From a virus (Duplodnaviria > Caudoviricetes), in the IMG/VR virus record IMGVR_UViG_3300044858_004015, positions 1 to 62,651 of that record: a stretch of 62,651 nt of DNA; one strand, given 5' to 3'. Below are positions 5,289 to 54,164 of this stretch, in pieces. Every line of letters starts with the position of its first letter. The first letter of the stretch is position 1. Position numbers and translations under genes: made by a program. The notes beneath the pieces are model-generated. The model had not been told where the DNA came from. It ran no database searches and saw nothing but the letters and a program-made list of their open reading frames with translations.

Positions 5289-7751
5289 ATGTCACGAAAC
5301 CTTGAAATCATCGCAACTTACCGATCTGAGCGATTCCGCTTTGACAATGCAGATTCGTCTGTAGTTATTGCCAGCGCTCAACTGGCTCCACAATCACGGG
5401 AGACCGCCAGGGAAGTTGGCATCGAGGATTCGTATATCACGATCAAAGGCGAGGCGGACGATAGCGAGCTGGAGAAGGGAATCACCTATCGATTCCTTGG
5501 CCAGTGGAAGGATTATTTCAATCGTCGCATTGGCATCAAAGAAAAGCAATTTTGCTTCGCGACATTCGTACAGCACGTTGCGCCCGATCGCCAGTCACTA
5601 ATCGACTATCTGACTCACGCTGGAAAAGGCAATGGAGTAGGAGCCCGCAAGGCTGCAATTCTCGTTGACCAATTCGGCATCGATGAAGTCCTTGAGAAGT
5701 GCCGACAACCCCTGGAGGTCGTCTCCGTAATCGGCATTAAACAGGACCAGGCAGAGCGATTCGCTGACTATCTGATCGAGCAAAAAGCGATCGAGTCCGC
5801 ACTGCTAGACCTAGATTCACTCCTGGCCGGCAAAGGATTCCCGAAGACACTTCCACGAAAACTGATCAAAGAATTCGGCAACCAGGCCGCACAGATCATC
5901 ACTGACGATCCGTTCACGTTAATGCAATTCAAGGGGGTAGGCTTCAAGAAGGCCGATAACCTTTGGAATCTACTGCGCAAGCCAGCGAATGATATTCATC
6001 GGCTCGCAATGTGTCTCTGGTATGGTATGCACTCAGACACCAGCGGAAGTACATGGTTTCCCGCCAGGGTTGCCGTCGAAAGGCTTTCGCGCGAGATTGG
6101 CTGCGAGATCGATTATCGAGGCGCGATCCTACACGGAAAAGAACTGGCTGAAACGTCCGAGCATCATTATGGGGCCATTGCCAGCACCAGAACCGATGCT
6201 GATGGGTATCCCAAGGAAGACGGTCCAGTCCTCTGGTTGTCAGAGTATCGAAACGACCAGAGAGAGCAAGGAATAGTTGAGGCTATTTCGCAAGCTTTCG
6301 ATGAAGCTAAAGATCGTGTTTTGAACGTCGGCGAAAATGGCTTTCAGGCTATCAGCAACAGCCAATATTCGATTTGGCCGGAAGTCAAAGAAGTTCAAAA
6401 TCTATCCGACCATCAAAATGAGCAATTGCATAACGCTATTGGCATGCTCAACACTCCGATCGCAATTCTGACCGGCTCCCCTGGCACTGGGAAAACGTAT
6501 GTGGTCGCTCAGCTCCTCAAAGCCGTTATCCGCCAAGGCCGTATTGGCGTGACGGATATCGTTGTCGGAGCCCCAACCGGCAAAGCAGCAGTTAGGCTAA
6601 CCGAGACGTTTCAGCAATTCGGAATACCAATCACCGCCAGGACATGGCATTCGCATTTATTTGGCCTGGATGCTGAGAAGGGTGTGGCGCTTCCATGCAG
6701 ACTGATGATCGGCGACGAGACCAGCATGAATGATCTTGAGCTGATACACCGAGTATTCTCAGCTCGACCATACGGCGCTCACATGCTTTTAGTCGGCGAT
6801 CCGTTCCAGTTACCTCCAGTTGGTTGCGGTGCTCCATTTCGCGATTTGATTGACTCGGGAGTTATTCCATCTGGCCATCTCACCAAGATCGAACGCAACG
6901 CTGGAGAAATAGTCGAAATTTGCGCTAGGATTCGCGACGGTCAGCGATGGGACAATTTGCTTAATGCCGGGAACGTGTCCTGTTTTCCATCTAAGACGCC
7001 AGAGGCGCAGATCGAGAAGCTCGAAACACTAGTTCGTCAGCATGATAAATGGGAAGCCCAGGTACTGGTCCCCGTCAACGACAAGAGCCCTATATCGAGG
7101 AAGATTCTAAACGACCGGCTACAGAAGTTACTGAATCCAAACGGAGATCCGGTCGAAAGGACAAAGTTTCGCATCGGCGACAAGATCGTCTGCACTCAAA
7201 ACGGATGGTATCAGGTCAGCGGCGAGATTTCACAGCAGATCGATGAAGCGGACGTAAACGACCGATCGGAAGTGAGGGTTGCAAACGGCGAGCTGGCCGA
7301 AGTCGTCAACCTACACACGAGAGGATTCATAGCCAAGTTGGAGTCGCCGCGACGACATGTGATCGTCACGGTGGGAAAGGAATCCGGCAAGGATGCCGCC
7401 ACGGATGGCGAAGATTCGCAGGCTGAATCGCCTTCGGAAGAAACCTCAAAGGAATCTTCCCCTGGCGGTCTCAAGTGGGAGCTTGGCTACGCTCTAAGCT
7501 GCCATAAGGCCCAAGGCAGCGAATTTCCGTTCGTCTACATCATGGTCGACGAATATCCCGGCGCTCGCTCTATTTGCGATGCCTCCTGGGTCATGACTGC
7601 AATCAGTCGAGCCAAACAGGAATGTTATTTGATTGGTAATCCTGAAACCGCTCAGCGCTGGTGCAGATCTTGGAAGATCGGCGAGCGGAATACGTTTTTG
7701 AAAGAACGGCTTATTGCGGCAAGTGTAGAAAAAGAATTGGAGGCTATCTGA
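5289..7751 (+). CDS. recD2: RecD2-like SF1B helicase
   Basis: N-terminal HhH repeats (GVGARKA, GVGFKKAD), Walker A GSPGTGKT, DETSM, VGDPFQLPPVG, YALSCHKAQGSEF, TAISRAK. Confidence 0.93.
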   Translation: MSRNLEIIATYRSERFRFDNADSSVVIASAQLAPQSRETAREVGIEDSYITIKGEADDSELEKGITYRFLGQWKDYFNRRIGIKEKQFCFATFVQHVAPDRQSLIDYLTHAGKGNGVGARKAAILVDQFGIDEVLEKCRQPLEVVSVIGIKQDQAERFADYLIEQKAIESALLDLDSLLAGKGFPKTLPRKLIKEFGNQAAQIITDDPFTLMQFKGVGFKKADNLWNLLRKPANDIHRLAMCLWYGMHSDTSGSTWFPARVAVERLSREIGCEIDYRGAILHGKELAETSEHHYGAIASTRTDADGYPKEDGPVLWLSEYRNDQREQGIVEAISQAFDEAKDRVLNVGENGFQAISNSQYSIWPEVKEVQNLSDHQNEQLHNAIGMLNTPIAILTGSPGTGKTYVVAQLLKAVIRQGRIGVTDIVVGAPTGKAAVRLTETFQQFGIPITARTWHSHLFGLDAEKGVALPCRLMIGDETSMNDLELIHRVFSARPYGAHMLLVGDPFQLPPVGCGAPFRDLIDSGVIPSGHLTKIERNAGEIVEICARIRDGQRWDNLLNAGNVSCFPSKTPEAQIEKLETLVRQHDKWEAQVLVPVNDKSPISRKILNDRLQKLLNPNGDPVERTKFRIGDKIVCTQNGWYQVSGEISQQIDEADVNDRSEVRVANGELAEVVNLHTRGFIAKLESPRRHVIVTVGKESGKDAATDGEDSQAESPSEETSKESSPGGLKWELGYALSCHKAQGSEFPFVYIMVDEYPGARSICDASWVMTAISRAKQECYLIGNPETAQRWCRSWKIGERNTFLKERLIAASVEKELEAI

Positions 7752-8512
7752 TGTTTAATCAACTATCAGAACAGCTTGGCATTGCTCGACCGTCAGACTG
7801 GTCGCAGGTCTCACCGAGCCAAGTTCTGGCCAAACCACGGACAGGCGATCGCACTTTGCAGAGCTTGCGGCTTTGGTTGGCCAAGCAAAATCTAACACTT
7901 CTGGACGATCAAACGCCAGAATATTGGCTTGCGCAGTCGGAAAGCGGCCCAGTTGTCAGCCCATTTGTAATCATCGTAGACGAAAAGGAACAACAGCCAT
8001 TCACATTCCCCGACCTACAGACAGGAGCTTCACAGGGCTATCGAAAGATAGTCGCCAGAACGATCCGCAGGTCGCTAGGAACCTCCAAGGGTGACTACTC
8101 GATGACTGGCTTCGAGGGACAGATTCATATCGAGCGAAAGTCGATGGAAGACGCCCACGGAACTATCCTTGGCTGGGGTGAGCGCCGCGATCGCTTCGAG
8201 GCCACATTGTCCTACTTGAACCAGATCGAGTTCGGAGCAGTCATTGTCGAATGCACTCTTGGAGTTTTGCTGGCCAACGCTCCCGAGCGCGGGAAGAAAA
8301 CGAAAGTCGAGAATCGTCGATCTATCAACGCGACGTACTTGTCCTGGCAAATGAAGTATTCATCAGTCCCTTGGATTTTCTGCGATACCAGGGGCTTGGC
8401 CGAGACGGAGACGTACCGGCTATTCGAGAAATTTTACGCTTACAAAATCAAGCGACGAAAATCCGCAGAATCACACTCCCAATCACTTTCTAACGACCTA
8501 TCTCTAATCTAA
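7751..8512 (+). CDS. ERCC4/XPF-family nuclease (candidate resolvase)
   Basis: IIVDEKEQ, GDYS and IERKS motifs; ATG at 7751 overlaps the recD2 stop. Confidence 0.85.
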   Translation: MFNQLSEQLGIARPSDWSQVSPSQVLAKPRTGDRTLQSLRLWLAKQNLTLLDDQTPEYWLAQSESGPVVSPFVIIVDEKEQQPFTFPDLQTGASQGYRKIVARTIRRSLGTSKGDYSMTGFEGQIHIERKSMEDAHGTILGWGERRDRFEATLSYLNQIEFGAVIVECTLGVLLANAPERGKKTKVENRRSINATYLSWQMKYSSVPWIFCDTRGLAETETYRLFEKFYAYKIKRRKSAESHSQSLSNDLSLI

Positions 8513-10371: not shown

Positions 10372-10596
10372 ATGAACAAATCACAGATCAGAAAATCGCA
10401 CGAAACCGAGCAATGCACCTTTTGCGGCGGTCGCAAGATCACGACTTGGACTCACGGTGTTGGTGTGTACGTGCGAGAGCGGCGACACGGCAAATGCCCA
10501 TCGTGCAAAGGCGAGGGCGTCAAATACAAGTTGCCCAGTGGTTTTTGGGACATCAATTACGTCGTTAAGTGGCACAAAGAACATGCAACAACCTAA
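10372..10596 (+). CDS. Small DnaJ-like zinc-finger protein
   Basis: CTFCGG...CPSCKGEG. Confidence 0.65.
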   Translation: MNKSQIRKSHETEQCTFCGGRKITTWTHGVGVYVRERRHGKCPSCKGEGVKYKLPSGFWDINYVVKWHKEHATT

Positions 10597-10825: not shown

Positions 10826-11842
10826 TTAAACCTGCGCATTCGCGACAAACGCCTTCGCCGCCGCATCTACCATGTGAGCTTTATGCCTGTCTAAATGCCC
10901 GTAGACCTGGCCTACCATCCTAACGTCGCTATGCCCAAGCAATTCTGCGACTTCAGCCAGCGAAACACCATTAAGCAAGCTCTGGGTCGCAAAAGTATGC
11001 CTATAGGCGTAGGCGACCACACTTGTCGGAAGCTTTGCCCGCTCGCGCGCTCGAGCGATCGACCTCGAAACCGAATCTTTAGTCCACGCACCGCCATGGG
11101 TGTTTCGGAATAGCGGCCCGTCAGAGTGAATTTTAACCAAAAGCCGCGTCAAAGTCTGCAAGCATGGAGGAAGATAGACCACCAGGGGGCGATTCGTCTT
11201 GTGCCGCGTCTTGTGATCCTCGAAAATCCATAGCTTCCCATCGACTGACACATTCCTGGCGGCTACTTCCCTAATCTGCCTTGGCCTAGCTCCGCAGCGA
11301 GACGCGATCAGATAAAGCCTTAGAGCTGGGCTAGCTTCGCTAATCATGGCAGCATGCTGCTGAGGCGTAATCGTCGTGTTTCTGGGCCGGGCAGCCGGAG
11401 CCTTCAGCCGGATAACTGGATTCTTTTCGATGATCCCCTCGTCACGAGCCCACCGAAACAGCCCCTTGACCACTCGAATAGCATCCTTCTGAGTCGTAGC
11501 TGACCAAACGTCGACCTTTGGCTTCTTTTCATTCACCCAGGCCATTACGTCATTCACCTGGAGGTTATCGACCTGCTTATTCCCGAGCGCAGTAGAAAAC
11601 TGACGCAAGTAAGACCAGTTGATCAAGAATCGCTTTTCGCCCTTACGGAATTCATGGGCCTCCAGGTACAGCCTCACAAGAGTCTTGATACGGACTTTAG
11701 GCCCTTCAGTGAACCTACCTGCCAACATTTGCCGCCAGAGTTCAAACGCCGTTTCTTCATCCGGATCAAGACGAATGAAACGGCCAGCCTTGTCTTTGAG
11801 ATACCAGCACTGATGCGACGAGCGAAAGAACGGCTTACGCAC
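10826..11842 (-). CDS. int: Tyrosine recombinase (phage integrase)
   Basis: Catalytic R (CGARP), K (HKT), YAYRHTFAT, LLGHSD, VYGH; adjacent to attP. Confidence 0.93.
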   Translation of the reverse strand: MRKPFFRSSHQCWYLKDKAGRFIRLDPDEETAFELWRQMLAGRFTEGPKVRIKTLVRLYLEAHEFRKGEKRFLINWSYLRQFSTALGNKQVDNLQVNDVMAWVNEKKPKVDVWSATTQKDAIRVVKGLFRWARDEGIIEKNPVIRLKAPAARPRNTTITPQQHAAMISEASPALRLYLIASRCGARPRQIREVAARNVSVDGKLWIFEDHKTRHKTNRPLVVYLPPCLQTLTRLLVKIHSDGPLFRNTHGGAWTKDSVSRSIARARERAKLPTSVVAYAYRHTFATQSLLNGVSLAEVAELLGHSDVRMVGQVYGHLDRHKAHMVDAAAKAFVANAQV

Positions 11843-11934: not shown

Positions 11935-12182
11935 TTGGTGCCAAACCCGGTGCCAAGCGGAATTAGCACCAGGTTTGGCATTTTGACAAACCCCATAATT
12001 CCTTAGGAATTACAGGGTTTTCGCAAGTCGGGCCGGCGGGATTCGAACCCACGACCTCTACCACCCCAAGGTAAAAAATGAAGCAAAATACCTGGATTTT
12101 ATTGAGAATTTCGCTGCCAAAAAGCAAGAATTAGCAACAAAAAACGGCTAGAGGCGTCTAGTTGGTGCCAATTTGGTGCCAA
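11935..12182. promoter_or_regulatory. Integrase arm-type binding repeats flanking attP
   Basis: (TT)GGTGCCAA at 11935, 11949, 12162 and 12173, with variants near 11906, 11963 and 12113. Confidence 0.7.
12027..12073 (-). other. attP core: 3' half of tRNA-Pro(GGG)
   Basis: Minus strand TACC-TTGGGGT-GGTAG-AGGTC-GTGGG-TTCGAAT-CCCGC-CGGCCCGAC gives the anticodon arm through the acceptor 3' strand; no 5' half is present. Confidence 0.88.
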
Positions 12183-12622
12183 CGTTGCCTCGCCTCTTCC
12201 AGTGTCATTGGCGCGTCGCCGGTCTTTCTGTCGACCATACAATGAAACTTCCATGTCCATTCGAAGAATTTAGCAGAATCGTCGCACGGTGGTGGGTTAT
12301 TATGGACATATTCAATCGCGAATCGTCGGCATCCACAGTCAATAGACGGGACTGTTTTAAGCCATTTGGCAATTTTTAATTTGGATGGCTGAGTCATGCT
12401 ATGAAGAACCTCCCAGCACTTTCGACCTTCCATCTTCAATTGTTCGCGATGCTTTTCAATATCTACTTGGGATGCTGAATTATTCTCAACCCCTAAAGTG
12501 CCTGTTGATTCTTTATTGTTGCTGAATAAGGGCGAAGGCATTGCTTCAATGGACTTCGAAAGCATCTCCATCGTCACGCCTGGAGGTAAAATAATCGGCT
12601 GAGGCAAATCATCAATTCTCAT
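12158..12622 (-). CDS. Erv1/ALR-like FAD-dependent sulfhydryl oxidase
   Basis: GRKCWEVLH (GxxxWxxLH), PSIDCGCRRF, FFEWTWKFHCMVDRKTG (cf. WxWxxHNxVNxRLG), MTLEEARQRW. Confidence 0.72.
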   Translation of the reverse strand: MRIDDLPQPIILPPGVTMEMLSKSIEAMPSPLFSNNKESTGTLGVENNSASQVDIEKHREQLKMEGRKCWEVLHSMTQPSKLKIAKWLKTVPSIDCGCRRFAIEYVHNNPPPCDDSAKFFEWTWKFHCMVDRKTGDAPMTLEEARQRWHQIGTN

Positions 12623-12629
12623 TTTGACC

Positions 12630-14261
12630 TCAACTTACATGATAGCTGGTGTTGGCGTCAATTCCTGGAAATGATGTTCCTGGAAATAATGCTGGGCACG
12701 GCTCGATTGGAGAAACCGTAAAAGAATTGTACACCAAAGGCTGAGTATGCACCCTGTGTGGAAAGACATGAGCCCACCTGGCGCTGTACGAGCCAATACA
12801 CCCGTATGGAGCAAAATATAAAACAATGTAATTGAAAAGAAATGGAAAAATCGGGGACGAAAGCGCAGGATATTCATCAACTGTCGTGGAGTCGGGGCTT
12901 GTAGCATAATCATTGTAAACCGTTCTTTTTCGAATCCAAAAGAATAGCCCATTGTTTCGAAAATGCACGTCACCCTCTTCCTTAATTGATTTGTAAAGAT
13001 GGTTGCTGGAACTCGCGACAGTAGTCGTATCGTTAAATATCTCGTAAGTGCCAACCTTGGGTGGTATTATCGGCCAATCATATCCGCAATTGTAGTTGAA
13101 TGGAATCACTACTGATCCGCTGATGTTACATGATACCGTTGTAGTGTTTATGTAGCTAAGATACTGAGGTTGTCCATTCCAGTACAATCTACATTCTCCA
13201 GATCCAGAAAAAGATGGCGGCATTTCTATAGTTAAAAAGCTCCTTCCATATTCGCATGGGATTGGAAAGGACTTGACGACCTTCACGCCGCAGCTATTCG
13301 TTACTTCGGCAGTCCATGACCTTCTACCGGTCGGAACGGTTATAGATGGAAAGTCATCGATTGCCTGTTTGCGACAATCGCGACCATAGAGAAGATCTGA
13401 GGAAGGGTTTATTATGACAGGAAAGCCGTAGCACGAACTTCCGGCCGTCAGCCCATAACCTGATCCTGGAAGCGAAATTGTCTGTCCGTCTATCTTAAAA
13501 CTGGTGATGGGGCAATTTATTGAATTAGAAACGGCTCTTGCCACAAGATACAATTTATTGCCATCTAATTCGCAGCCAAGGTAATCCCCTGGTGACCATT
13601 CTTCCGTGTATCCAATCAGCCCTCCTTCTAAGAATATGGGACAATTTGCATTAGTGATTCTGACTGTCATCGAATTGGCGACTATTCTTACTTCAGCCTT
13701 TTCCTCTACGCCTTCCTGTTCGATTTCTACTATGTCGCCAACGTTGTAGCCGTACCCCAGCTCGACAGGTACAAGGCCGCCAAGGTTCATCTGTGTACGC
13801 AGTTTTACAGATTTGACTTCTCCATCTTCTATCGTAATATCTAACCCGAGTCCCCCACCATCGCCGGTTTTCGTAGTGACGGTTATTGGTGGGTTTGGAA
13901 ATAAGTCGCTTGAATAGCCAGAACCTCCAGAGATTAGTTCCACTTCCGTAACGAATCCACTGCCTACATATTCGCACTCGCGATCTCTTGGCGGTTCATT
14001 GCAGCAGTATTGATACTGATATAGCCCGCTAGAACCAAGAGGCGGCGAGTATATGCCAGGCGTCTCTTCCGAGATAATGGAAAGTATTTCACCTAGTTCG
14101 TTGATCTGGACCAAGCGTCCTTTATGCGGCATGTCATAAAGGGAATGCTGGGTTTCGCATCCCCACTGTATCGAGCATCCGTTAGTGTCAGCAGAAATCC
14201 AACACTGGCAGTTATGCTTGTGGCAATTATTGTTGCAACAACGCGAGTTAAAGTGAGCCAC
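12630..14261 (-). CDS. Cysteine-rich tail fibre/receptor-binding-like protein
   Basis: About 22 Cys, N-terminus RCCNNNCHKHNCQCW; GGSGY/GYGY..GD fibre-type repeats; at the end of the tail module. Confidence 0.55.
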   Translation of the reverse strand: MAHFNSRCCNNNCHKHNCQCWISADTNGCSIQWGCETQHSLYDMPHKGRLVQINELGEILSIISEETPGIYSPPLGSSGLYQYQYCCNEPPRDRECEYVGSGFVTEVELISGGSGYSSDLFPNPPITVTTKTGDGGGLGLDITIEDGEVKSVKLRTQMNLGGLVPVELGYGYNVGDIVEIEQEGVEEKAEVRIVANSMTVRITNANCPIFLEGGLIGYTEEWSPGDYLGCELDGNKLYLVARAVSNSINCPITSFKIDGQTISLPGSGYGLTAGSSCYGFPVIINPSSDLLYGRDCRKQAIDDFPSITVPTGRRSWTAEVTNSCGVKVVKSFPIPCEYGRSFLTIEMPPSFSGSGECRLYWNGQPQYLSYINTTTVSCNISGSVVIPFNYNCGYDWPIIPPKVGTYEIFNDTTTVASSSNHLYKSIKEEGDVHFRNNGLFFWIRKRTVYNDYATSPDSTTVDEYPALSSPIFPFLFNYIVLYFAPYGCIGSYSARWAHVFPHRVHTQPLVYNSFTVSPIEPCPALFPGTSFPGIDANTSYHVS

Positions 14262-15754
14262 TAGTCTACGACCTGTATTTGATATTGAAGGGTGATATCG
14301 CAGCCAGCATGGATGCCGCCAATGACTGTTGTGCTGATGGTTATTGTGTAAATTCCGTTAGATACGCCCTGTAAAGGTATGCCAGTAAACCATAAGTTGC
14401 TATCGTTCCAAACATTGCTTGCGCCGCGGTAAATACCCTCTGGCAATCCTGAAATAGTTGCGTTTTCCCAGTCGCAGTTCGTAAGCATGAAACGCGCTTG
14501 ATTCCCGAATGACCCTGATTTAGTGAACACGCGAGGTTCTGTAGTGAAAATTGGCAAGATCGAAGCTCCAAGAGCCCCATAATCGGTCGGAGATGGACAT
14601 TCAGACGGAATGCAGACACTAACTAGCCTTATTGGTATTGTACGAATGAATCGGCACCCATTTGGAATGGTCTCGCCCTCTAATATTGCGTTCCAGATCC
14701 ATGTCCCTAAACTTTGTTCAGTACCTCCAGCGATTGATTCAGGTGCAAATTCACAGTTGCTTACGTTTGGCGATCCAGATATCTTCACCTGGCTTCCTTG
14801 CGGATTTTCGGAAATCAACTCCGTAGAAAGCCACGACGGAAGACCCGTAATCTCGATATTTTCCACCTTCGACGCATTGACAATTGTTTCACCATAAACA
14901 CCAACACAACATGACTGAGAATCTCTAAAGATTCTCCAGGTTGGCTCTGCGCTAATACTCGCATCGGCATCGAGGGAGTCGCATGGCAAAACCCTAAGAA
15001 TGAATTCGACTTCGATAGGGCATTCATGTTCAGTGGTTTTACCCTTTACCGTGATAGTGTATGTAGAAGTAGCAGGCAATTCTTCGCTTTCTAGCGTGAT
15101 CGTGCCGTCCTCTTCGTCTACAGTTGCCGTGATCTCGTTAGGCAGGCCAAGGATCTGAATTTCCTCCACATCTGTAAAATTGATTACGTGTTCCCACTCT
15201 TCGAATTCATTTGCGATCGGCAGCATGCCAATGCTAATAATGCTGTCAACTGGATCGCACGGATCAATGCGAAGATTTGTGGGTACGTTGATCTCACATT
15301 CATTTTCTGTCGTGATGCCACTAATGATTATCGGGTAATTGCCTGCCTGTGTAGGAATTCCAGAAATCAAGTTAGTCGACGCGTCAAATGACAGGCCACC
15401 GGGCAAGCCTACTATCCTGACATCTTCGACATCAGTTACATTGAGCTGAAGTTCATATTCTTGATTAACGTAACCAATAGAAACCTGGCCAAATCCTAAT
15501 ATGCTACCTTCCTGGTCGCAAAATTCATCAACGCATCTTCCCTGTAAAAAGTAGTGGCCGCCCCCGTAACGAAACCACATTCCGAAATAACCTGCTGGGG
15601 TTCCGCCAGGTCTGCCGAAAAGAAGCCTTCCTGTAATCGTGCTTGGACTGTTTGGATACCAAATGGTTCCATCTTTATTGCAAAGCTTTGCGCTCCCTCT
15701 AAAACCACCAGTTAATGGGTTCGAATTTGAAATCAACTTCATGAATCGAATCAT
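14261..15754 (-). CDS. Virion protein with tandem Ig-like (He_PIG-type) domains and paired cysteines
   Basis: Repeated GLP.GLS...ISG.P motif; each repeat carries a C..I...LR..PC pattern; start probably MIRFMKL. Confidence 0.7.
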   Translation of the reverse strand: MIRFMKLISNSNPLTGGFRGSAKLCNKDGTIWYPNSPSTITGRLLFGRPGGTPAGYFGMWFRYGGGHYFLQGRCVDEFCDQEGSILGFGQVSIGYVNQEYELQLNVTDVEDVRIVGLPGGLSFDASTNLISGIPTQAGNYPIIISGITTENECEINVPTNLRIDPCDPVDSIISIGMLPIANEFEEWEHVINFTDVEEIQILGLPNEITATVDEEDGTITLESEELPATSTYTITVKGKTTEHECPIEVEFILRVLPCDSLDADASISAEPTWRIFRDSQSCCVGVYGETIVNASKVENIEITGLPSWLSTELISENPQGSQVKISGSPNVSNCEFAPESIAGGTEQSLGTWIWNAILEGETIPNGCRFIRTIPIRLVSVCIPSECPSPTDYGALGASILPIFTTEPRVFTKSGSFGNQARFMLTNCDWENATISGLPEGIYRGASNVWNDSNLWFTGIPLQGVSNGIYTITISTTVIGGIHAGCDITLQYQIQVVD

Positions 15755-15755
15755 T

Positions 15756-17522
15756 TTACGGTTCCGGTGGTCCGGGCGGATTGATACATGCACCTTGCAC
15801 GAAGGCCCATACTTTTCTAAGTTTCTTTTCTAATGGATCAAAGTCTGGTAACTCTTCATCCGGCTGGTAGTCTGGATTATCAATCATGTCGTCAACATAC
15901 GCGAACAGGCCAACGTATCCCTCTTCCGCGTTATCCAGAAGCCCCTCCCAGTTATAAACCGTTTCTGGCGCTGAAGGGATTTGACGATCATCGTCGAAAT
16001 CTGGATTTTCAATTTCCGGTCCTTCTGGATCTTCTGGATCTGGAATTGTTTCCCTTGGGTCGTAATCCGGATTATCGACCATCAAAACGATTCCGCCCAT
16101 AGTGCATTTCTGAGCCTGCAATTCTTCCTGCTCTTCTACATCTTCAATTAACTTAAAAAAAGCTAGCGCTCCCCCATCAGCGCCGCATTCGGAGTGTTGG
16201 CCATTTGAAAGAATAGCAGTAGGCAAGAAAATCGAAGGCAATTCATGATATTTAGTCAGAAACATATACTGCCCAGCATCATGCTCCTTTATTTGAATCG
16301 AAAAATAATCATCGAATCCGCAAATCGTGTTAGACGGATTGGGCATCTCGGGTTCTTCAGGCGGCTCCTCTGGAGGTGGGTCTAACGGTGGAACTCGAAT
16401 CACACCGGCCATGCTGTAGGCACCGCCAGAAAGCAGCCAGCTTTTGATATTGGCAGCTACTGCTTCTGCGAAGTCGTCGTACTCGGATTCAGTTGTACTT
16501 TCGAAACTAGACCAAACGTTCAATGGCTGAGAAAATACGCCGCGACCACTATCAATAGGCACTGTTTTGTCGATTGATATTCCATTCTCTTTCATCCATA
16601 ATGTCATGTCTTTAGGGTGGCTGGACGACCTGCCTTTATCTCCAGCGACAATTAACGGAGATGGGATGTCTTGTCCCTCTGGCAGTCCCCATGTTCGCAT
16701 TCTTGCGTTTCGAATACCAGTCGAGCTGTCAGCCCCCTGCGCATGGTAATAATGACGAACTGGATCATAGACGATTCTTAGTCCAGCAGACAGCGCGCCG
16801 ACGTCCAAAAGAGTGCATGCGAATTGGCTAATGCTAGGGCGAGATATCCTTGCGTCGGCGCTTCGGTACGATGGTGGGATGTCATCGTGCCAAAATCTAT
16901 CTGGTATAGCTAGTTCGCTTATTAGTTCCCGAAAGCATGCTTCCCAAGACATTAGACTTGTAGAATCACCCTGAACGGCGGAAGACTGCTTAACCGCGCT
17001 GAACCAGTATCTCTCATCTACCAGTGGAAGTAGCCACAAATCGACTCCACTTCCAGCGATACGATATGGGGATAGCGGATACATGTTTTCTATTTCAACG
17101 ACATGATTTTTCTCTGATTGGAATTTTAATGATAGCGGAATTAGATCTCTGTAAGTCGCCATCCATCTAGCTGGAGGGTTCATTGGCTTAATCGTTGCTG
17201 GATCTTTCTCCCTGCCCCAACATCTAAGAGCTATTTCTTGCAATACAGGCCAGTCGACAACGTACAGGGCTCGACCATAGCGGCTTATTCCGGTAGGGCA
17301 CTGGTATTCGTTTATTTGCAAGTCTGGCAGTGCAGTATAGGGCAATGCTAGGTAATTCGACGAATTGTCGCAGGTTAGTGGATTGACCGGCTTATTTTTC
17401 ATTGATCTTGAGAATAGCAGGTCTTCTGAGGGCAATCGAAGATCAAGAAAATTTTTGACCTGATTTTGCCAATCCAAAATGACTGGCATGCCTTGAATCA
17501 ATATGCTTCCAGTGGCTGTCAT
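15756..17522 (-). CDS. Putative tail structural protein
   Basis: Large ORF in the tail operon; acidic C-terminus with three NPD[YF] repeats. Confidence 0.55.
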   Translation of the reverse strand: MTATGSILIQGMPVILDWQNQVKNFLDLRLPSEDLLFSRSMKNKPVNPLTCDNSSNYLALPYTALPDLQINEYQCPTGISRYGRALYVVDWPVLQEIALRCWGREKDPATIKPMNPPARWMATYRDLIPLSLKFQSEKNHVVEIENMYPLSPYRIAGSGVDLWLLPLVDERYWFSAVKQSSAVQGDSTSLMSWEACFRELISELAIPDRFWHDDIPPSYRSADARISRPSISQFACTLLDVGALSAGLRIVYDPVRHYYHAQGADSSTGIRNARMRTWGLPEGQDIPSPLIVAGDKGRSSSHPKDMTLWMKENGISIDKTVPIDSGRGVFSQPLNVWSSFESTTESEYDDFAEAVAANIKSWLLSGGAYSMAGVIRVPPLDPPPEEPPEEPEMPNPSNTICGFDDYFSIQIKEHDAGQYMFLTKYHELPSIFLPTAILSNGQHSECGADGGALAFFKLIEDVEEQEELQAQKCTMGGIVLMVDNPDYDPRETIPDPEDPEGPEIENPDFDDDRQIPSAPETVYNWEGLLDNAEEGYVGLFAYVDDMIDNPDYQPDEELPDFDPLEKKLRKVWAFVQGACINPPGPPEP

Positions 17523-18076
17523 GATTCGATTCCTAGCTTCCAATCGAACGAGCATCCAAACGTTAGGTGCATTCCGTAATGCCCTAAACCGCCAGGAACG
17601 TCAGCCACTTCGGTCGAGTGTAGCGGCCTGAGTGGACTTCGAAGCAATGGACGCTGACTAACGACCGGCTCCCAGATTTTCGGATTCGTCGGATCTTCCG
17701 CGTTATCGAGTAGCAGGGCTGATAGAAGATTGCGCTTCCAGATCGACATGCCGCGCCGAGCGTGCAACAATCTTTGCTCACCGGCTGGAAGGCGATCGAG
17801 GTTCATTTGGACGATCGGCGTAACGATGATCTGCAAATCTTCATTGCACGTTCGATGCCCACCGCCAGTGAATAGAGCTTGGTCGAACGATCCCGCGCCA
17901 ACCGCTATTGTCACGAAATGACTGACGGTTGGAAAGATCGCTCCAGCGGGTATCGGCTGATCGGCGATGAAACAATGCTTGTCCTGAGCGCAATCCGGCA
18001 CGACTTCGCGAATGCGATCGCGAATTGCAACAAGGATTTCGTCTTGGGTGGCGTAGCGCCGAAGCGTTGGGTTCAT
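17519..18076 (-). CDS. Putative tail completion/terminator-like protein
   Basis: 185 aa; EILVAIRDRI N-terminal helix and beta-rich C-terminus; genomic position. Confidence 0.4.
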   Translation of the reverse strand: MNPTLRRYATQDEILVAIRDRIREVVPDCAQDKHCFIADQPIPAGAIFPTVSHFVTIAVGAGSFDQALFTGGGHRTCNEDLQIIVTPIVQMNLDRLPAGEQRLLHARRGMSIWKRNLLSALLLDNAEDPTNPKIWEPVVSQRPLLRSPLRPLHSTEVADVPGGLGHYGMHLTFGCSFDWKLGIES

Positions 18077-18765
18077 TGTGGATTGATTGGAGCGTATGCG
18101 ACGGTGATTCGACCGCCAGTGATGTAGATCCCGGTATCAGGCCAGCGAAGTGACCACTGAAGGTTTTGCTTTCTCTCTGTGAGCGCTGCGGTTGAAGGAA
18201 CTTGAAGTGAGCCGTTTTCCACCGTCAGCAACGACGACAATAAGACAACCTTCCTGGAGGTCTCTACCGTGAATCGCAGCTCTTCGCCTTCGATGCTGCT
18301 TAATGTTTCGTCGTCAAGCGATTCGAGAGGTATAATGGCTTGCAGGTCTTCGCCGTTGAACAGCGTTAGATCGCGAACGCCAAGACGCCTTGCAGGAGGG
18401 AATGGCTCGTTGGGTAGCACTTGTCCGGAAATCCATCTGACCACTTGAGCTAGAGCCGACTGCTTGAATCGTATCTGACCATCTACAGTTTCAACCATAC
18501 TGGCTAGCGTTTGATCGCTTGTAGTATTCTGGCTGAAGTCCCACTTCATTATATTTTTGTTCCAGTGTTCAGGCTGTGTATTGCCACGAAACAAGTACCA
18601 TTCGTTATGTTGATCATCTAATGAAATCTGGAACTGACCCGGCTTACCAGCAACCGGCACTGATGCTATTCCACTGGGAACATAATCTGAAAGATTGCCA
18701 GATCGTGGCAATGCTTTATAGACATAGCCCGGCTCTGCATCGAATAGGACTGTGATAATGGCCAT
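18073..18765 (-). CDS. Putative virion protein
   Basis: Start probably MAIITV, overlapping the upstream stop. Confidence 0.55.
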   Translation of the reverse strand: MAIITVLFDAEPGYVYKALPRSGNLSDYVPSGIASVPVAGKPGQFQISLDDQHNEWYLFRGNTQPEHWNKNIMKWDFSQNTTSDQTLASMVETVDGQIRFKQSALAQVVRWISGQVLPNEPFPPARRLGVRDLTLFNGEDLQAIIPLESLDDETLSSIEGEELRFTVETSRKVVLLSSLLTVENGSLQVPSTAALTERKQNLQWSLRWPDTGIYITGGRITVAYAPINPQ

Positions 18766-19523
18766 TATGCCAAGGCTCCCAAGTTGCGTGATCGAACCGT
18801 GCCGCCGATGTTGGCGTCTACCCACAGATCGTTTCCGTTAAGTCGAAATCCAAAGTAGCCTGCTGGCAGCGAGCCGACAGGAGCATCAGCAATGGCAGAC
18901 ACCGTAGCGGTTCTAGCTGACGCGCTCACCATGATTGATTCGATCCAACCATTGTTGTCTGTTGAGCCTCTCATCGTAGCGCCTGTATGTCCAACCAAAA
19001 TCGTATTAGCCACGTTGTTTGTGAGCGTATTGCCTATTGCGGTATTAGAGCCGCCTGACGCAACCACCGTGCGACCTAGAGCCAAAGCGTTATTGCCATT
19101 TACCGTGCATCCGCGACCCATCGCCATGGAACCATTTGCTAAAACTCCGGTTGTTCCTGCGCCGCACTGGGCTCCAATACAGACAGCACCTGAGCCATAG
19201 GCGACATGGGTAGCAGCAGTACGCGAAGCTTGAATATCTAAGGAGTTTGGTCCAGCCTCATTCAAAGCGCTGCCATTATCCTGAGTCAGCCGACCACCGC
19301 GATATCGACGTTCCGTCCCGTCAGGTGTTAGATCAGTGAATACTGCTTCGGTTTGAATTGCTACTGGGTCGGTGTCTTCATCGACCCCTACATACAGTCG
19401 ATTAGTGTCAAAGGTATACAGAAGCTCACCCAGCATAGGCTTCTGGCCAACCGGCAAGGCTTCCAAGTCAGCTTGCAACCCTCTACGTATTCGGATTTTG
19501 CTTTTGATTACTACATCAGTCAT
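18765..19523 (-). CDS. Fibre/adhesin with an Mtd_N/hyaluronidase-like N-terminus and YadA-head-like repeats
   Basis: IRIRRG...LGELLYTFDTNRLYVG; repeats GAVCIG, GSMAMG, NALALG, NTAIG. Confidence 0.7.
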   Translation of the reverse strand: MTDVVIKSKIRIRRGLQADLEALPVGQKPMLGELLYTFDTNRLYVGVDEDTDPVAIQTEAVFTDLTPDGTERRYRGGRLTQDNGSALNEAGPNSLDIQASRTAATHVAYGSGAVCIGAQCGAGTTGVLANGSMAMGRGCTVNGNNALALGRTVVASGGSNTAIGNTLTNNVANTILVGHTGATMRGSTDNNGWIESIMVSASARTATVSAIADAPVGSLPAGYFGFRLNGNDLWVDANIGGTVRSRNLGALA

Positions 19524-22078: not shown

Positions 22079-22888
22079 ATGCGTCCTCAGTCTAGCACCG
22101 CTCCAAAATGTCCGCACTGCGAATTTCCCGTCAGGATTCCGCCTGATCAGTGGCGATGGTCGAACCCATGGCAGTGCGGAAATTGTGGCGGCATGTATGG
22201 GATTCGAATACACCGCCAGGAGGTGTTCGCCATTCCGAGCGGGCTTGAACCGCTTTGGCCTCTATTCACCTGGATGGAGGCTCGGCGGTTCGGTTTCTTT
22301 GCGTCTGGGAAATACTACGTCTACGCGATTTGTTACCAAAACGGCATTCCGATGTACGTTGGTCGAGGAAGAAAATTTCGAGTCTGCCAGCATATCGAAG
22401 AGACATGGCGAATGCCCCGCGAAAGATTTCAGCCTAAGCATTGCGAAATCATCGCGCTGACCGATGCGAACGAATCGGAGTGGTATCACTTCTTGGCCCT
22501 AGTCGACGATCCGGCTAAAGCAGCCGCGATCGAAAGATCCTACGTCCAGAAATGGGGTTTAGCTAAAAGCGGTGGTTTACTACTTAATAAAGTCGTACCC
22601 GATGGATCGCCAGACTGGGAGCCGGACGACCTGGAACCGGTCGAATCGGTGATTATTCCCCTGGAGGTAACTAGCGGAACCCAGGAAGAGAAGCTGATTT
22701 TCCATCCGGATATCTCTGAAGGCAATCGCCATCAAACGAGACGCTATACATGCGGGATCTGCCGGTTGTTTTGCCTGGTGCCCGAAAGCCTGATTTCTCA
22801 CATCGTTCAATGCCCAAACTGTGCCCACCTGTTCATACCGATATCGGATGGCTGGTCGCCAGGTGAGCCCAGGGAATTTGGCGACTAA
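22079..22888 (+). CDS. GIY-YIG nuclease-like protein flanked by zinc ribbons (antisense insert)
   Basis: YYVYAICYQNGIPMYVGRG...R...H...E...LLN; CPHC/CGNC at the N-terminus and CGIC/CPNC at the C-terminus. Confidence 0.7.
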   Translation: MRPQSSTAPKCPHCEFPVRIPPDQWRWSNPWQCGNCGGMYGIRIHRQEVFAIPSGLEPLWPLFTWMEARRFGFFASGKYYVYAICYQNGIPMYVGRGRKFRVCQHIEETWRMPRERFQPKHCEIIALTDANESEWYHFLALVDDPAKAAAIERSYVQKWGLAKSGGLLLNKVVPDGSPDWEPDDLEPVESVIIPLEVTSGTQEEKLIFHPDISEGNRHQTRRYTCGICRLFCLVPESLISHIVQCPNCAHLFIPISDGWSPGEPREFGD

Positions 22889-32189: not shown

Positions 32190-33230
32190 TTAGGCCAAAA
32201 CGTTTTGGAACCAGAAGCCGGTCGCAGGAGCGGTAACCACCGCACAAACATCATCGACCACGCTTCCCAAATGCCGACGATTGTCAGTATCGTCCTTTGA
32301 CTCAACGCTCATTTCTTCGTAGGCGAAGATCGTCAACGTCGAGAACTCTGGCCCTTCGTTTTCATTGCCAAGTTCCCCGACCTTGGACAGCATGAATACG
32401 CTGCCGTCTGGGAATACCCGAGTGCGAACCGCCGAAGCAGCGCCGCGACGGCTAGTCACCATCACAGCACGTTCGATTGAAATGTCGAAGCCATAGAGCT
32501 GGTCAGGCAATCCATACTTATGGAATTTGCCTTGCTTGCCCTTGACTTGATCCAAGGCATCAGGCGATCCCTTGATGTGATCGACGATCTCCTGGCACAA
32601 GGAAACTTTCTTGGCCGTGTTGGGGCTCATGACGATATGGAATTGGCTTGGATCGACAGCCGCCAAGGTGTCCAGTTCAATCAGTTCGCTGCCATGGAAC
32701 AGGGACCGCTTGATATCCTGCCGAGCAGTCGTCGAGGCTTCCCACGTTCCGGCATTTCCGGCGATCGAAGCAACCGCTGAAACGTGCGATGCGTCCCAGT
32801 TGGCCGCATTAGTCAGAGCTTGAACCGCCAGGCGAGTACGACTGGTCATGGCTCGCTGGGCAGCAATCGCCCCGTGAGTGCCGGAAATATCCCAGTCGGC
32901 TTGCTCCTTGGCTTTCTGGCCGAGCTTGAACGGGAATGCGTGTCGCTGGGTGCGGTAAGGCAGCCAGGCGAATTGCTCGGTCCCGTCATTATGCTGAGGA
33001 CGATCAGCGCCATCAGCCCAGACGGTTTCGTCGGTGTTGCCGCCAACCAGTCGACCGGCTTGCTCTGCGTTGATTCGCAGGTAATAGCCTTCGTCTTTTT
33101 GGACGGTCTTAAGCTGAGCGTATTGGTGAAGATCAAACTTATTCGGGTTCCGAGAGAACTCGACTTTAAGCTTGCCAGATGCAGCAAAGCTGCGGACGTA
33201 GGTGTTTGAACCGCCAGGAAGAGCAGACAT
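32190..33230 (-). CDS. Major capsid protein
   Basis: 346 aa; order protease-cement-capsid-connector; HIVMSP, LYGFDISI and C-terminal GFWFQNVLA resemble HK97-fold capsids. Confidence 0.82.
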   Translation of the reverse strand: MSALPGGSNTYVRSFAASGKLKVEFSRNPNKFDLHQYAQLKTVQKDEGYYLRINAEQAGRLVGGNTDETVWADGADRPQHNDGTEQFAWLPYRTQRHAFPFKLGQKAKEQADWDISGTHGAIAAQRAMTSRTRLAVQALTNAANWDASHVSAVASIAGNAGTWEASTTARQDIKRSLFHGSELIELDTLAAVDPSQFHIVMSPNTAKKVSLCQEIVDHIKGSPDALDQVKGKQGKFHKYGLPDQLYGFDISIERAVMVTSRRGAASAVRTRVFPDGSVFMLSKVGELGNENEGPEFSTLTIFAYEEMSVESKDDTDNRRHLGSVVDDVCAVVTAPATGFWFQNVLA

Positions 33231-37559: not shown

Positions 37560-40500
37560 TTACGAGAAGGCTCCCGCCCTACCTTGCGACGATTTTTCAT
37601 TTACTTCTTTCAACCAATTCTCAGCGTCAAGAATGGCTGTTTTCAGCCTCTCCCCGCTTTTTGAATGCCAATTGCGGATCTTCATATCGGTTGACGCTGG
37701 AATAGTTTCGTCTTTGGCCTTCATGAAATTCCTAAACTTATGATCGTCAGCGTATGGGCTTTTTGCTGTTCTGCCGCCAGCAGCATCAAGACCTAAATGC
37801 GTGTTCAATCTTCTGACTATGTCTATTCCGCGCTTTTTAATTTCGTCTATGCGACTATCTGAATAGCCATGATCTCGCTTTCTGAGGCTACGGATTATCT
37901 CGGATACAGCACCCCAAGAGCTTCCACTGACCACTTTCCCGTCAGGGGCTGTACTCATTTTCTCGGCGATCCTGTGACCCTCTCGGAGTAAATCCCTGTA
38001 CTCTTCAATTGGATTTTGGCCGGAGGCTCTTTTAGCTGCCTCGGCCTCCAGTATCCTGGCGTGCTTCCGTAGGCGATCGACCTCGCCCTCTTGCCATTTT
38101 TGACTATACTCGGACGCGCCTTCTTTTTTCAACGATGCCAATTTTTGCTCTGCTTGTGCAAGCTTTAGAAGTGCGGTTCCGAGCGTCCTTACTTTGCTGC
38201 CCGCTTCTTTGGTTAGCCCTAAAAGCCTGATGGCAGATTCAACGCTGGCTACCTTCAGCCCTTCGCCTGGAATACTTACACTGAACTGGTGGACTATTTG
38301 GCGGCCAGTATGCTCGTTTGTTTCTGCCCTCGACCAGTCTGATCGCTTGACTTCTGATTCGCCGTCTTCGCTGATTTCCCATTGCCACTGCCAAGTGTAA
38401 GAGACGATAGATGCACCGGTTGGGCCAGTAATCGGCTTGACGAATACACCCCCTCCAGTCTTATCTCGCTTGGCTCCCTGCTGGATCGCGTCAGACTTGC
38501 TGGCCGCCGTAGCTTTAGGCTTGGCCTCAGCTTGCTTAGCTTTGTTGTCGATCCTGTCTTTAGGGATGAACTGCCCTCCATCGCTTTTGCCTGCTGATGC
38601 CCTTGGATGTTCGGACTCATCCCAGTTAAATGCCAGTTGTGATTTTCCGGCATATCGAAACATTTCTCCAGAAAGATCGCAATTCAGCCCCCAATACTTC
38701 ACCAGCTTAGCCGCATGATCGCGGATCGAAGAATACTTGATATGCTTCTTCACTTCAGGAAATCTCAGCGACAAAGGTTTCAGGATAGACTTCAAGTAGT
38801 CGTCATGGTCATATTCGGAAACAAAGTCGGCGGCTTCTGCTACGCTCAAGCCGGCTTGCATTGCTGAAATAAACGTGTGCGAGTCTTCTGATCCGGCTTT
38901 ATGTAGAGATTCCGCAGCTTTTGCTAGAAGTAGTTTTTCTTTGCTGTCAAGGTCTTGCCCGCGACTCCTGCGTTTCTCAAGTTGAGCCAATAAAGACCCC
39001 GCGTTATTGGCTGCGATGTGAGGCGGATCAAGCAATTCACTTTCGATCCCTGCCTGCTGAAATATCCTTCCAAGCCTAGATCGATCCATGGCCTGGTCGT
39101 CTTGGTAAATTCCCCAGGTAGTATCATTTTTCTTGACAGTTCCAAAATCGAAGAACTTCAATTGCCCTTGGCCATCCGTTCCAAATTGCAATTCGTCGTT
39201 GAAGGCATATCCGGCATCGTGAAGGCTCTTGATTAAATCTGCGGCTTGCCTGGCCTGTTCTGGAGTGTACTTGTCCAAAACGTTCAGCTTCTCTTGAATT
39301 GTGAAAACGCGATCGCCATGCTCGACTACCGATTGATTCGGCAGCCCTTTAACGCCAGCTCGCTTTAGGTTTTGGTAGGCGTCGAACTGCTGCTTAGCCG
39401 CTTTCCTGGCATTTTCAGGTGTTTGGTGCCCTGGCCCTCCAACTGCATGATATGGCACTGTCGTTGAGCTTTTGATAACATTCCCGTCCAGCGAGTCCCA
39501 GACTACAGAGTCATTACCCTTCCCGATGTACTTCGCACCGCCAGAGATGACGCGATCAATGGAAGCGTTCCCGCTGGAGCCATGAGGTGCTAGATACCGG
39601 ATGTCGCCGGTTAGATCGGCACGCATGTGCTGTAAGGATTCTTTCGGAACTTTAGCCGTCATGCCCCACTGGTTTGATACTAACGCATGGGATTCATCGA
39701 GCTTCGATATCTGCATTACGCTTGGATCATTACCGCGATGTGGGACCGCAGTAAATGAATGCCCTACTTCGGCGAACTGCCCTAATTCATCCCGAGGGTG
39801 TTTGGATTCGTCCCATGTAGCGCTATATCGATCAACGTCTACTTCTCTGGTTGGCTTGCTGTTTCCGGCTGCCACCATCTTCAATGCGACAAATCTCAGC
39901 GACAAAGGTTTCAGGATAGATTCCAGATCCTGGAGAACTGGAATAGCGTCATTAGTCCCAGAAAAACCTGCTAGCCTTCTTAATGCTTCTACCGCTACCG
40001 GCATAGAAGGGAATTCTTTTTGAATCTTCTTGGGTATCAACATCTCGGCAGTTATGCCAACCTGATGATCAAAATCCTTTTTTATGTATTCTTGTATCTC
40101 GCTTTCCGAGTATCCTCCCCGCTGGATTTCGGTCTTGATTTCATGATCGATATAGCGTTTCTTTGCCCATCGTCCTACAGCCTCAATCTGGTCGTTATTT
40201 AGCGTCTGAAGGAATGGGATGATCCTTTTTTTGACGTCATAGCCAAACCTGCCAGGCTGTTCACCAGTCCAGAAGACTTTCCCAATTGGGCCGCTTCGTA
40301 ATTGATCCCAAGTCTCTTTTTCTTTGGTCCGCTCTATGTGATCCTTAATTTCCTCCAGGCTTCGCTGCCTGACCGCCCTGAGCTTCGATTCCTGATCCGC
40401 CTTGACCGCTTTCATTTCGCCGTCAAATTGCTTTGGATTGGCCGTTTTCTTCTGTTGGCCGCTGAACAACCCATGCACTGGCATGAGCGATCCGCCTTTA

Positions 40501-53564: not shown

Positions 53565-54164
53565 CTAATCGGCGGTGGTGATCGAAGCTAGGAAGTCCAG
53601 GATCTCAGCATTCAGCGTGTCGCCAATTCCCTTGATCGGAACTAGCGATCCGTTCTCGGCGATGTATTTCTTGACGTCCTCGATCGTGTTCAGGCCGGCA
53701 CGAATCAAAATTTTTGCGCCAGGGATATTCGTCGATGCCAGGCCGGTTTCCGTTGTGTCCGACGACGAATTAGATTCATCTAACGCCGAATCTAATTCGT
53801 CGTTAGGCTGGCTGGCTTGATCCAGCAAAACATTGACATTTTGATCACTAACCGCCGAATCTTCATTTTGAGATTCGTCGTTTTCGTCGTTTTCGTCGTT
53901 CTCCATGATGAATTCGCTTGGACCCAAGCCGGTAACGGTCCCGTTGTCAGGCGATACAGCAAACACCTCTTCGATGACGAATCCATGGCGCGCCGCCGAA
54001 TCTTCTGTATACCGCTCTGGTAATCGATCTGGCCAGCAGACGCAAATCTGATCGAGACCGCCATATTCAATCGCGAAACCGTAGCCAACCAAATTGTTGA
54101 CGTCGGTGACTCTCAATAGTGTTCCACGTAATCGGAATTTTGATTCCAAGGTAAGTTCTCCCAT
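53565..54164 (-). CDS. Acidic protein with a C-terminal helix-hairpin-helix
   Basis: ILIRAGLNTIEDV...IKGIG. Confidence 0.6.
   Translation of the reverse strand: MGELTLESKFRLRGTLLRVTDVNNLVGYGFAIEYGGLDQICVCWPDRLPERYTEDSAARHGFVIEEVFAVSPDNGTVTGLGPSEFIMENDENDENDESQNEDSAVSDQNVNVLLDQASQPNDELDSALDESNSSSDTTETGLASTNIPGAKILIRAGLNTIEDVKKYIAENGSLVPIKGIGDTLNAEILDFLASITTAD

Follow-up and report, generated by a model that had tools for sequence, protein, structure and literature searches.

We describe here a gene of the Erv/ALR sulfhydryl oxidase type in an uncultivated tailed phage (IMG/VR record IMGVR_UViG_3300044858_004015, 62,651 bp, analysed over its full length and hereafter called the window), together with the cysteine-rich tail genes that precede it. 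The gene, at 12158–12622, is the final open reading frame (ORF) of the minus-strand late block, and its product appears to be a divergent member of the Erv/ALR superfamily, within a large radiation in uncultivated tailed phages. We propose, at a probability of roughly 0.6, that the tail-end proteins of this phage are folded oxidatively by its own Erv enzyme. A first-pass annotation of the same DNA had suggested a candidate cytoplasmic disulfide-forming system, and our results support that reading. The argument concerns the following features:

12158–12622, minus strand: Erv/ALR-like gene, 154 amino acids; a Cys-free N-terminal extension of about 58 residues, then an Erv-type helical domain.
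12167–12448, minus strand: Erv-fold domain, residues 59–152, with predicted helices at residues 52–74, 81–88, 98–108, 116–134 and 141–152.
12329–12337, minus strand: C96-G-C98, aligned to the flavin-proximal CxxC of Erv enzymes in the pB119L and ALR alignments.
12630–14261, minus strand: 543-amino-acid Cys-rich protein with 22 Cys (4.05%); candidate tail-end or receptor-binding protein.
14261–15793, minus strand: 510-amino-acid protein with 15 Cys (2.94%) and Ig-like He_PIG repeats (E = 6.3e-7, above the cut-off).

All of the motifs by which the Erv/ALR layout had been recognised in this last late gene are present in the 154-residue protein: GRKCWEVLH (residues 66–74), CGC (96–98), FHCMVDRKTGD within WTWKFHCMVDRKTGD (122–136) and MTLEEA (139–144). 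The Pfam family Evr1_Alr (PF04777) matched residues 68–149 at E = 4.3e-5 over profile positions 2–93 of 93, and the top match of a phmmer search of the PDB with the single sequence was pB119L of African swine fever virus (ASFV; E = 0.002). A word-index homolog search with the protein returned only itself, and an exhaustive HMMER search returned 299 representative relatives at E ≤ 1e-3, 23 of them at ≤ 1e-10 and two at ≤ 1e-30 (a metagenomic family). From these we assembled an alignment of 140 relatives (A1: the best 150 of the 299, minus ten longer than 230 amino acids), whose profile matched 19 PDB sequences at E ≤ 0.01, all of them Erv, ALR, QSOX or R596. The strongest match was again pB119L (1.7e-18), followed by ALR (1e-16), Erv1 (5e-16; yeast and plant Erv1 about 1e-15) and Erv2 (2.8e-10), with QSOX and mimivirus R596 matched more weakly. 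PF04777 itself was matched at E ≤ 1e-3 in 120 of the 140 relatives, and two relatives (in loci L093, 37.6 bits, and L105, 29.1 bits; we number loci with L and database proteins with P) exceed its gathering cut-off.

The predicted structure agrees with this assignment. An AlphaFold2 model built from the relatives' alignment reached a predicted local distance difference test (pLDDT) of 84.2 overall and 88–98 over residues 51–150, with five helices. In a Foldseek search of the PDB the best 20 listed matches were all Erv/ALR chains, among them pB119L, AtErv1, Erv1, ALR and Erv2, with template-modelling (TM) scores by target of 0.44–0.67; pB119L came first (0.67 by target, root-mean-square deviation 2.9 Å, 95 columns). 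The first-pass annotation had named a homology and fold comparison with Erv1/Alr as a check, and the outcome, from profile matches of 1e-18 to 1e-10 with solved Erv/ALR enzymes to the fold matches, bears it out. Computationally, then, the Erv homology and fold of the protein can be called established, and strict Pfam membership of the single sequence cannot. A prediction for two copies of residues 50–154 with flavin adenine dinucleotide (FAD) scored 0.26, with a mark of 0.42. The closest Atlas cluster is one of Erv1/Alr proteins with 101 viral members, Uroviricota being the most frequent phylum among them (score 0.86, no more than a lead). No PHROG family, tail-fibre chaperones included, matched the protein at E ≤ 0.1. 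Neither it nor the 543- and 510-residue proteins has a signal peptide or a transmembrane-like segment (highest 19-residue hydropathy 0.84, 1.57 and 1.23, respectively), and the Erv protein is by these measures cytoplasmic in character.

The Erv tree groups the window with L002 and L236 in a supported clade (99/95); the deep nodes are weak and the branches long, and donor and direction are not read from it. L002 is the only close relative from the IMG/VR search, to which a 2.3-kb metagenome contig (L163), too short for use in the locus counts, can be added. The N-termini of the family vary. Many relatives (P0003, P0004, P0007, P0009, P0010, P0012, L002 8112–8558 and L236, and P0014, P0016, P0026, P0027 and P0045) carry a CPxCxW...CxxC ribbon or a CxCxxxxCxxH cluster, elements that could serve as docking or shuttle modules. 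The Cys-free N-terminus of the window protein has a PxPIxLPxG motif common to P0006 and P0011. Fused relatives also exist (P0125, P0008, L093 9950–11014, L105 9944–11095): one form joins Erv to a sub-threshold thioredoxin match (21.2 against 23.5 bits), another joins it to a sub-threshold phosphoribosyltransferase match, and Erv forms of 354–383 amino acids have 12–14 Cys and no second family.

The two genes directly upstream had been described as tightly packed virion genes with about 22 and about 15 cysteines, and the counts are exactly 22 in the 543-residue protein and 15 in the 510-residue protein, in a genome with a Cys content of 1.17% (218 of 18,704 residues, 51 ORFs counted). The stop codon of the 510-residue ORF overlaps the start of the 543-residue ORF (TAGTG), and 7 nucleotides separate the stop of the latter from the Erv ATG, with a GAGG that overlaps that stop. 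Only the end coordinate given for the system, 15754, has to be corrected: it falls inside the 510-residue ORF, for which two starts are possible, 15793 and the 15742 used by database protein P0152.

The 543-residue protein opens with a cysteine cluster (C8, C9, C13, C18, C20, C29 and C35, in RCCNNNCHKHNCQC), an N-terminal poly-Cys hallmark common to the upstream proteins of other Erv loci. It matched no family and no database homolog, its Atlas matches all lie below 0.8, and related-locus searches from the single sequences of the Erv, 510-residue and 543-residue proteins returned nothing. Its first ~100 residues weakly resemble the products of its positional counterparts in L236 (E = 7e-5) and L164 (E = 0.004), and similarity to the L236 gene (425 amino acids, 16 Cys, at −1 from Erv) is confined to that region. 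A constant N-terminus followed by a variable remainder is the pattern expected for a receptor-binding tail protein. Homologs of the 510-residue protein number five in the database plus those in L002, L164 (36% identical by tblastn) and L236; a seven-sequence alignment of this family has nine invariant cysteines, several as C-x12-C pairs at the ends of the Ig-like repeats. Two more genes of note lie further upstream:

15756–17555, minus strand: 599-amino-acid late protein with 9 Cys, syntenic with the module in L236, L002 and L164.
18765–19523, minus strand: 252-amino-acid protein with Mtd_N, the major tropism determinant N-terminal domain (PF18454, E = 5.4e-6, 26.7 bits against a cut-off of 26.3).

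The Mtd_N protein lies four genes upstream of Erv and marks the tail-fibre region. We use the label "tail fibre" on the basis of position and domains, namely Mtd_N, the He_PIG Ig-like repeats and the tape-measure-proximal place of the genes in relatives; no fibre-family match was found.

The first-pass annotation had put forward the co-occurrence of Erv homologs with Cys-rich structural genes as a further check, and across the family this linkage is far stronger than could be seen from the window. A1 was too diverse for pattern design, and subgroup alignments (A2–A4) were made instead; they gave 139 and 101 IMG/VR stretches, of which 80 loci each were kept (A3 and A4). In the A3 loci, 64 of the 65 ORFs of at least 200 amino acids directly upstream of Erv contain at least 4% Cys, as do 22 of 29 in the top A4 loci (L083–L116) and only two of 31 in the weak A4 loci (L117–L162). 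At the other offsets from −6 to +6 the maximum is six of 15 ORFs. Within the phage-type set (the window plus L002–L116, 116 loci), 90 loci have a same-strand ORF of at least 150 amino acids and at least 4% Cys at −1 or −2, against a background of 57 such ORFs among 887 at all other positions. Because the loci are related to one another, we also counted clusters of Erv proteins (single linkage, at least 50% identity): seven of 11 have a Cys-rich neighbour where 0.124 per cluster is expected (binomial 9.6e-5).

The upstream proteins themselves fall into 15 BLAST families. Ten of these have at least 4% Cys and are mutually without BLAST similarity, and no Pfam or PHROG family was found for the Cys-rich upstream proteins of the relatives. 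Typically they have 290–510 amino acids and 25–42 Cys and overlap the Erv start by 4–40 nucleotides, and a CC, CCC or CCCC within about 15 residues of the N-terminus is common even to BLAST-unrelated families. Many Cys-rich families also terminate in a W-T/S-x-T/E-x motif. In the largest family (53 distinct sequences, 19–90% identical to the first), cysteine accounts for 14 of the 16 invariant columns. Gene order in L004 and L088 runs major head protein, tape measure (PF20155, E = 5e-23, and PHROG tape-measure families), a protein of about 290 amino acids, one of about 110 (264 in L088), the Cys-rich protein, Erv and early genes, and this order puts the Cys-rich protein in the distal part of the tail. 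An AlphaFold2 model of a member of the main Cys-rich family (A7; L004 8550–9956) is all-beta with hairpin strands of 24–38 residues (pLDDT 76.9) and has no meaningful fold match in the PDB or BFVD (TM ≤ 0.13). Giant ORFs of 2226 amino acids (L106) and 2687 amino acids (L089) also lie a few genes upstream of Erv.

The same arrangement recurs in prophages of the bacterial family that probably includes the host. Two features lie beyond the Erv gene:

10826–11842, minus strand: tyrosine integrase (PF00589, E = 1.7e-17; phrog_1, E = 1.7e-41).
12029–12073, minus strand: tRNA-Pro-like gene, a 45-nucleotide 3' fragment between the Erv gene and the integrase, read from the sequence.

ARAGORN found no whole tRNA in the window. 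The fragment is the probable core of the phage attachment site (attP), and late genes followed by attP and then the integrase gene is the usual layout of temperate phages. The 45-mer has exact matches in 62 genome stretches, 61 of which are titled Planctomycetota, Pirellula or Pirellulales, and the most likely host is for this reason a Pirellula-like planctomycete. Several of the matching genomes carry two copies of the fragment, which could be the attL and attR of integrated relatives, and at one match (L183, of those numbered L166–L227) an integrase homolog adjoins it. None of the 62 matching loci and none of five Pirellula-type genomes has an Erv gene. When the A1 profile was run against 401 genomes from the family to which a Pirellula-type genome belongs, it found eight loci in four genomes, and all eight lie in prophage-like tail modules with an ORF of 387–425 amino acids and 3.8–5.7% Cys, at −1 in seven and at −2 in one. 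These ORFs represent further families, with no BLAST similarity to the other upstream families. One locus, L236, is a prophage relative of the window, with Erv proteins 57% identical and homologs of the 510-residue (34%, E = 5e-66), 599-residue (35–45%) and 185-residue (62%) proteins; relatives at 45–62% identity that conserve the synteny thus exist. A single planctomycete chromosome (genome G360) contains four separate tail modules (L237, L240, L242 and L243), each terminating in a Cys-rich gene and Erv, and one of its Erv matches has an in-frame TGA.

The redox centre of the window protein had been read as divergent, with CxC in place of CxxC and HCxVD in place of HNxVN. Both substitutions were read correctly, and the first is the norm of the phage family rather than a defect. 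C98 is present in all 140 relatives; C96, W70, H74, P92, P110, P111, W122, H127 and V130 are each at least 90% conserved; and the position of the Erv CxxC holds CxC in 115 relatives, CxxC in 22, CxxxC in two and neither in one. Among loci, CxC occurs in 115 of the 116 of phage type, and CxxC in 40 of the 46 weakest A4 loci (L117–L162), which include contigs named for giant-virus metagenome-assembled genomes and contigs of up to 325 kb. Since nearly all phage-type loci have CxC, and since either form, with a Cys-rich gene beside it, is found in the planctomycete prophages, the sequences indicate that CxC is the normal state of the phage radiation, interchangeable with CxxC in the same gene arrangement. 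Of the putative flavin-site residues, the window protein also keeps W70, H74, H127, V130, K133 and the C-terminal W148.

These observations suggest the following mechanism. The Erv protein would appear in the cytoplasm at the late stage of infection, its translation coupled to that of the last tail genes, and would bind flavin and pass electrons to O2. C96 and C98, beside the flavin, may place disulfides directly into nascent or newly folded Cys-rich tail-end proteins made from the same message, whose cysteines would then end as disulfides rather than as metal ligands. Among candidate targets the 543-residue protein, which has the N-terminal Cys cluster, comes first and would be the likeliest substrate, and the 510-residue Ig-repeat protein is probably a second. 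No member of the thioredoxin, glutaredoxin or DsbA families (PF00085, PF00462, PF01323) was found at E ≤ 0.1 in the complete 62.6-kb genome, so a relay of the poxvirus kind is absent, and the proposed route would need neither a shuttle nor a thioredoxin-fold relay. Sitting in the slot of a tail-fibre assembly chaperone, the protein would act as an oxidative chaperone. The broader proposal, that tailed phages possess a self-contained two-gene oxidative module in which a CxC Erv flavoenzyme is translationally coupled to hyper-Cys tail-tip proteins (with as many as 42 Cys in some 470 amino acids, and with CC or CCC N-termini) in the reducing bacterial cytoplasm, we put at even odds.

Several observations weigh against oxidative folding by the Erv protein. 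On its own the 154-residue sequence scores 24.3 bits, below the PF04777 gathering cut-off of 27.6. The window proteins, at 4.05% and 2.94%, are only moderately Cys-rich compared with the 7–10% seen elsewhere. The linkage is incomplete: 26 of the 116 loci lack a neighbour with at least 4% Cys (13 have a lower-Cys candidate and 13 no candidate), as do four of the 11 Erv clusters, and one six-member upstream family has only 1.6–2.1% Cys; the loci are also not phylogenetically independent and ORF calling was crude. In L002 the −1 gene has only 3 Cys, the Cys-rich homolog (3.0%) standing at −2. L164 has two Cys-rich genes of 13 Cys each, but its Erv slot (7483–7863, plus strand) lacks an Erv domain and encodes a 126-residue protein with a zinc-ribbon N-terminus, as on many Erv relatives, and a CGC near the C-terminus; this protein may represent a truncated partner for the Cys-rich genes, or an alternative one. 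The cysteine and histidine clusters of the tail proteins could bind metal, and any disulfides would have to withstand the host thioredoxin systems and reductases. Finally, we know of no characterised Erv enzyme in which CxC is documented at the flavin site, and the HNxVNxKLGK motif is changed at three sites in the window subfamily (N128C, N131D and K136D), positions at which most relatives have the canonical residue (N128 in 104, N131 in 115 and K136 in 94 of 140). A sister subgroup (A5; 11 of the 140, including P0022, P0027, P0045 and the prophages L237 and L238) goes further, with H74 replaced by F and H127 by K (LF...LKSAVN) and CxC kept. Its cofactor site may differ, and as L237 and L238 still follow Cys-rich genes, the linkage needs no canonical flavin site.

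These last points lend themselves best to an alternative that we nevertheless consider unlikely, namely that the protein has the Erv fold without oxidase activity and serves as a non-catalytic assembly chaperone or adaptor that docks on a Cys-rich tail protein, for example on the N-terminal Cys cluster; a mixed disulfide or a shared metal could provide the link. The flavin-site changes, the histidine-less subgroup, the L164 slot with just a zinc ribbon and CGC, and a gene position that is the usual place of tail-fibre chaperones would all suit such a role. However, the 17 sequences of the window subfamily share the pattern FH[D/C]xVDxKTGD with D131 and D136 invariant, which points to constraint and an altered pocket and not to decay; C98 is invariant, W70, H74, H127 and W148 are kept as in flavin-binding Erv enzymes, and the fold is predicted with high confidence.

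Oxidative folding of the tail proteins has also to be set against an active oxidase with a target outside the virion, which would act on thioredoxin or on small thiols of the host, or generate H2O2, and so reprogramme the cell, arrest it, lyse it or keep other phages out; the cysteines of its neighbours would bind metals. The genome holds no relay partner and no proven substrate, His/Cys clusters such as CHKHNC in the 543-residue protein could bind zinc, and a gene that adjoins attP and the integrase stands in a common place for accessory genes. We judge this improbable, as it leaves unaccounted for both the coupled position of Erv, family-wide, after many BLAST-unrelated Cys-rich families and the fact that cysteines are the most conserved residues of the upstream proteins; in most loci, moreover, it is early genes that come after Erv, not att or int.

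More doubtful again is a packaged or surface-acting enzyme directed at a Cys-rich planctomycete envelope, with the Cys-rich tail tip engaged in thiol–disulfide exchange with the host wall. A cysteine-rich, disulfide-linked protein envelope has been described in planctomycetes, and the Pirellula-like host, the prophage copies in four of 401 genomes of that family and the position of the Cys-rich proteins at the tail tip are compatible with the idea. Yet nothing places the protein in virions, the chemistry of Erv enzymes is oxidation and not isomerisation, and the hosts of the 160 IMG/VR loci need not be planctomycetes. That the ORF is a decaying remnant or a chance ORF beside ordinary tail genes, as its sub-threshold Pfam score and the lack of a close homolog in the word-index search might hint, is contradicted by the 299 relatives, the profile match to pB119L, the invariant residues of the subfamily, the confidently predicted fold and relatives 45–62% identical with kept synteny, L236 among them, and we reject it.

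The rest of the genome is that of a complete tailed phage with 127-bp direct terminal repeats. Its late block runs on the minus strand from the terminase through the portal, a 3549-residue ORF, the head protein and further genes to the Erv gene at 12158:

54113–55690, minus strand: large terminase (Terminase_6N, E = 4.5e-20).
48210–49718, minus strand: Mu-type portal (E = 2.2e-36).
32190–33230, minus strand: major head protein (phrog_1005, E = 5.6e-6).

The 3549-residue ORF, between the portal and head genes (37560–48209, minus strand), contains only 3 Cys. A plus-strand ORF of 269 amino acids with 12 Cys (4.46%; 22079–22888) lies within the minus-strand late block and may be real or a chance ORF. 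Another plus-strand ORF (10372–10596, 74 amino acids) has two CxxC pairs, the second as CPSCKGEG, which to our eye resembles the CxxCxGxG zinc-finger motif of the DnaJ type. DNA runs that contain the stretch are oxic lake-water metagenomes, and no RNA run is listed for it. In one run of a second lake-water study (X2), contigs span 28 of 30 bins of the 12100–15800 stretch with zero differences to the window, and two further runs (X3 and X4) cover only small shares of it.

The Erv superfamily and the viral strategy were known already; what is new here is that the enzyme occurs in phages, that its centre is CxC, that the gene is coupled in a two-gene unit to hyper-Cys tail proteins, and that the radiation is so large. 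Searches with tblastn found no match for P0001 in 50,697 GenBank phage records, and for P0023 the sole match was a Mollivirus-type giant virus. A full-text literature search, with supplements and most subscription journals outside its reach, returned no paper on a phage Erv oxidase. If the proposal is true, no de novo disulfide catalyst from bacteriophages would precede this one, and it would account for phages that build heavily disulfide-bonded tail tips. It would also add a CxC variant to Erv enzymology and provide a compact two-gene tool for disulfide-rich proteins in the bacterial cytoplasm. Because the family is regarded as eukaryotic and giant-viral, a large radiation of it associated with prokaryotes would bear on the origin of the eukaryotic Erv enzymes, which could be tested directly by comparing the phage, giant-virus and eukaryotic forms. 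The analysis also draws attention to a large family of tail proteins that are extremely rich in Cys and have no known fold.

In its genomic position the window gene resembles the tail-fibre assembly chaperones of the lambda Tfa, T4 gp38 and Mu/P2 type, in which a small gene directly downstream of a distal tail or fibre gene, and coupled to it, is needed only for the folding of that gene's product. These chaperones have no sequence or fold relation to the window protein, whose proposed chemistry is oxidation. With the cellular Erv1/ALR, Erv2 and QSOX enzymes the window protein has in common the helical flavin-binding fold, W...H, a Cys pair, H...V...K and the C-terminal W. The cellular enzymes combine a flavin-proximal CxxC with a shuttle disulfide on a flexible arm, whereas the CGC of the window protein stands at the flavin-proximal position itself; in Erv2 a CGC forms the shuttle. 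In 14 control prokaryote genomes the Pfam cut-off for Erv1/ALR was exceeded in none.

Among viruses, disulfide formation in the reducing cytoplasm by an Erv enzyme of their own is textbook knowledge for poxviruses, ASFV, mimivirus and baculoviruses, and the minimal viral Erv oxidases are the nearest known proteins: after pB119L come E10R, R596 and baculovirus P33. The pB119L gene is not known to adjoin a gene for a Cys-rich substrate. What defines an Erv enzyme is its fold, the binding of its cofactor and the cysteines of its active site, and the family is described as universal among eukaryotes and as conserved among nucleocytoplasmic large DNA viruses (PMC3509050). Poxvirus E10R-A2.5L-G4L and mimivirus R596 supply virion disulfides in the cytoplasm (PMC13576161, PMC3509050). 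Poxviruses relay through thioredoxin-like partners, of which none was found in the window genome. R596 carries a CX9C shuttle and an ORFan domain (PMC3509050); the window protein has neither a shuttle pair of this kind nor such a partner. The closest counterpart is ASFV pB119L (PDB 3gwl), an FAD-linked enzyme that is the best match of the window protein in both sequence and fold. It differs in its CxxC and HNxVN, where the window protein has CxC and HCxVD, in its eukaryotic host and in having no N-terminal extension, compared with about 58 residues in the window protein. Both are minimal single Erv domains, and in each case a late gene encodes the protein and the virus is assembled in a reducing cytoplasm.

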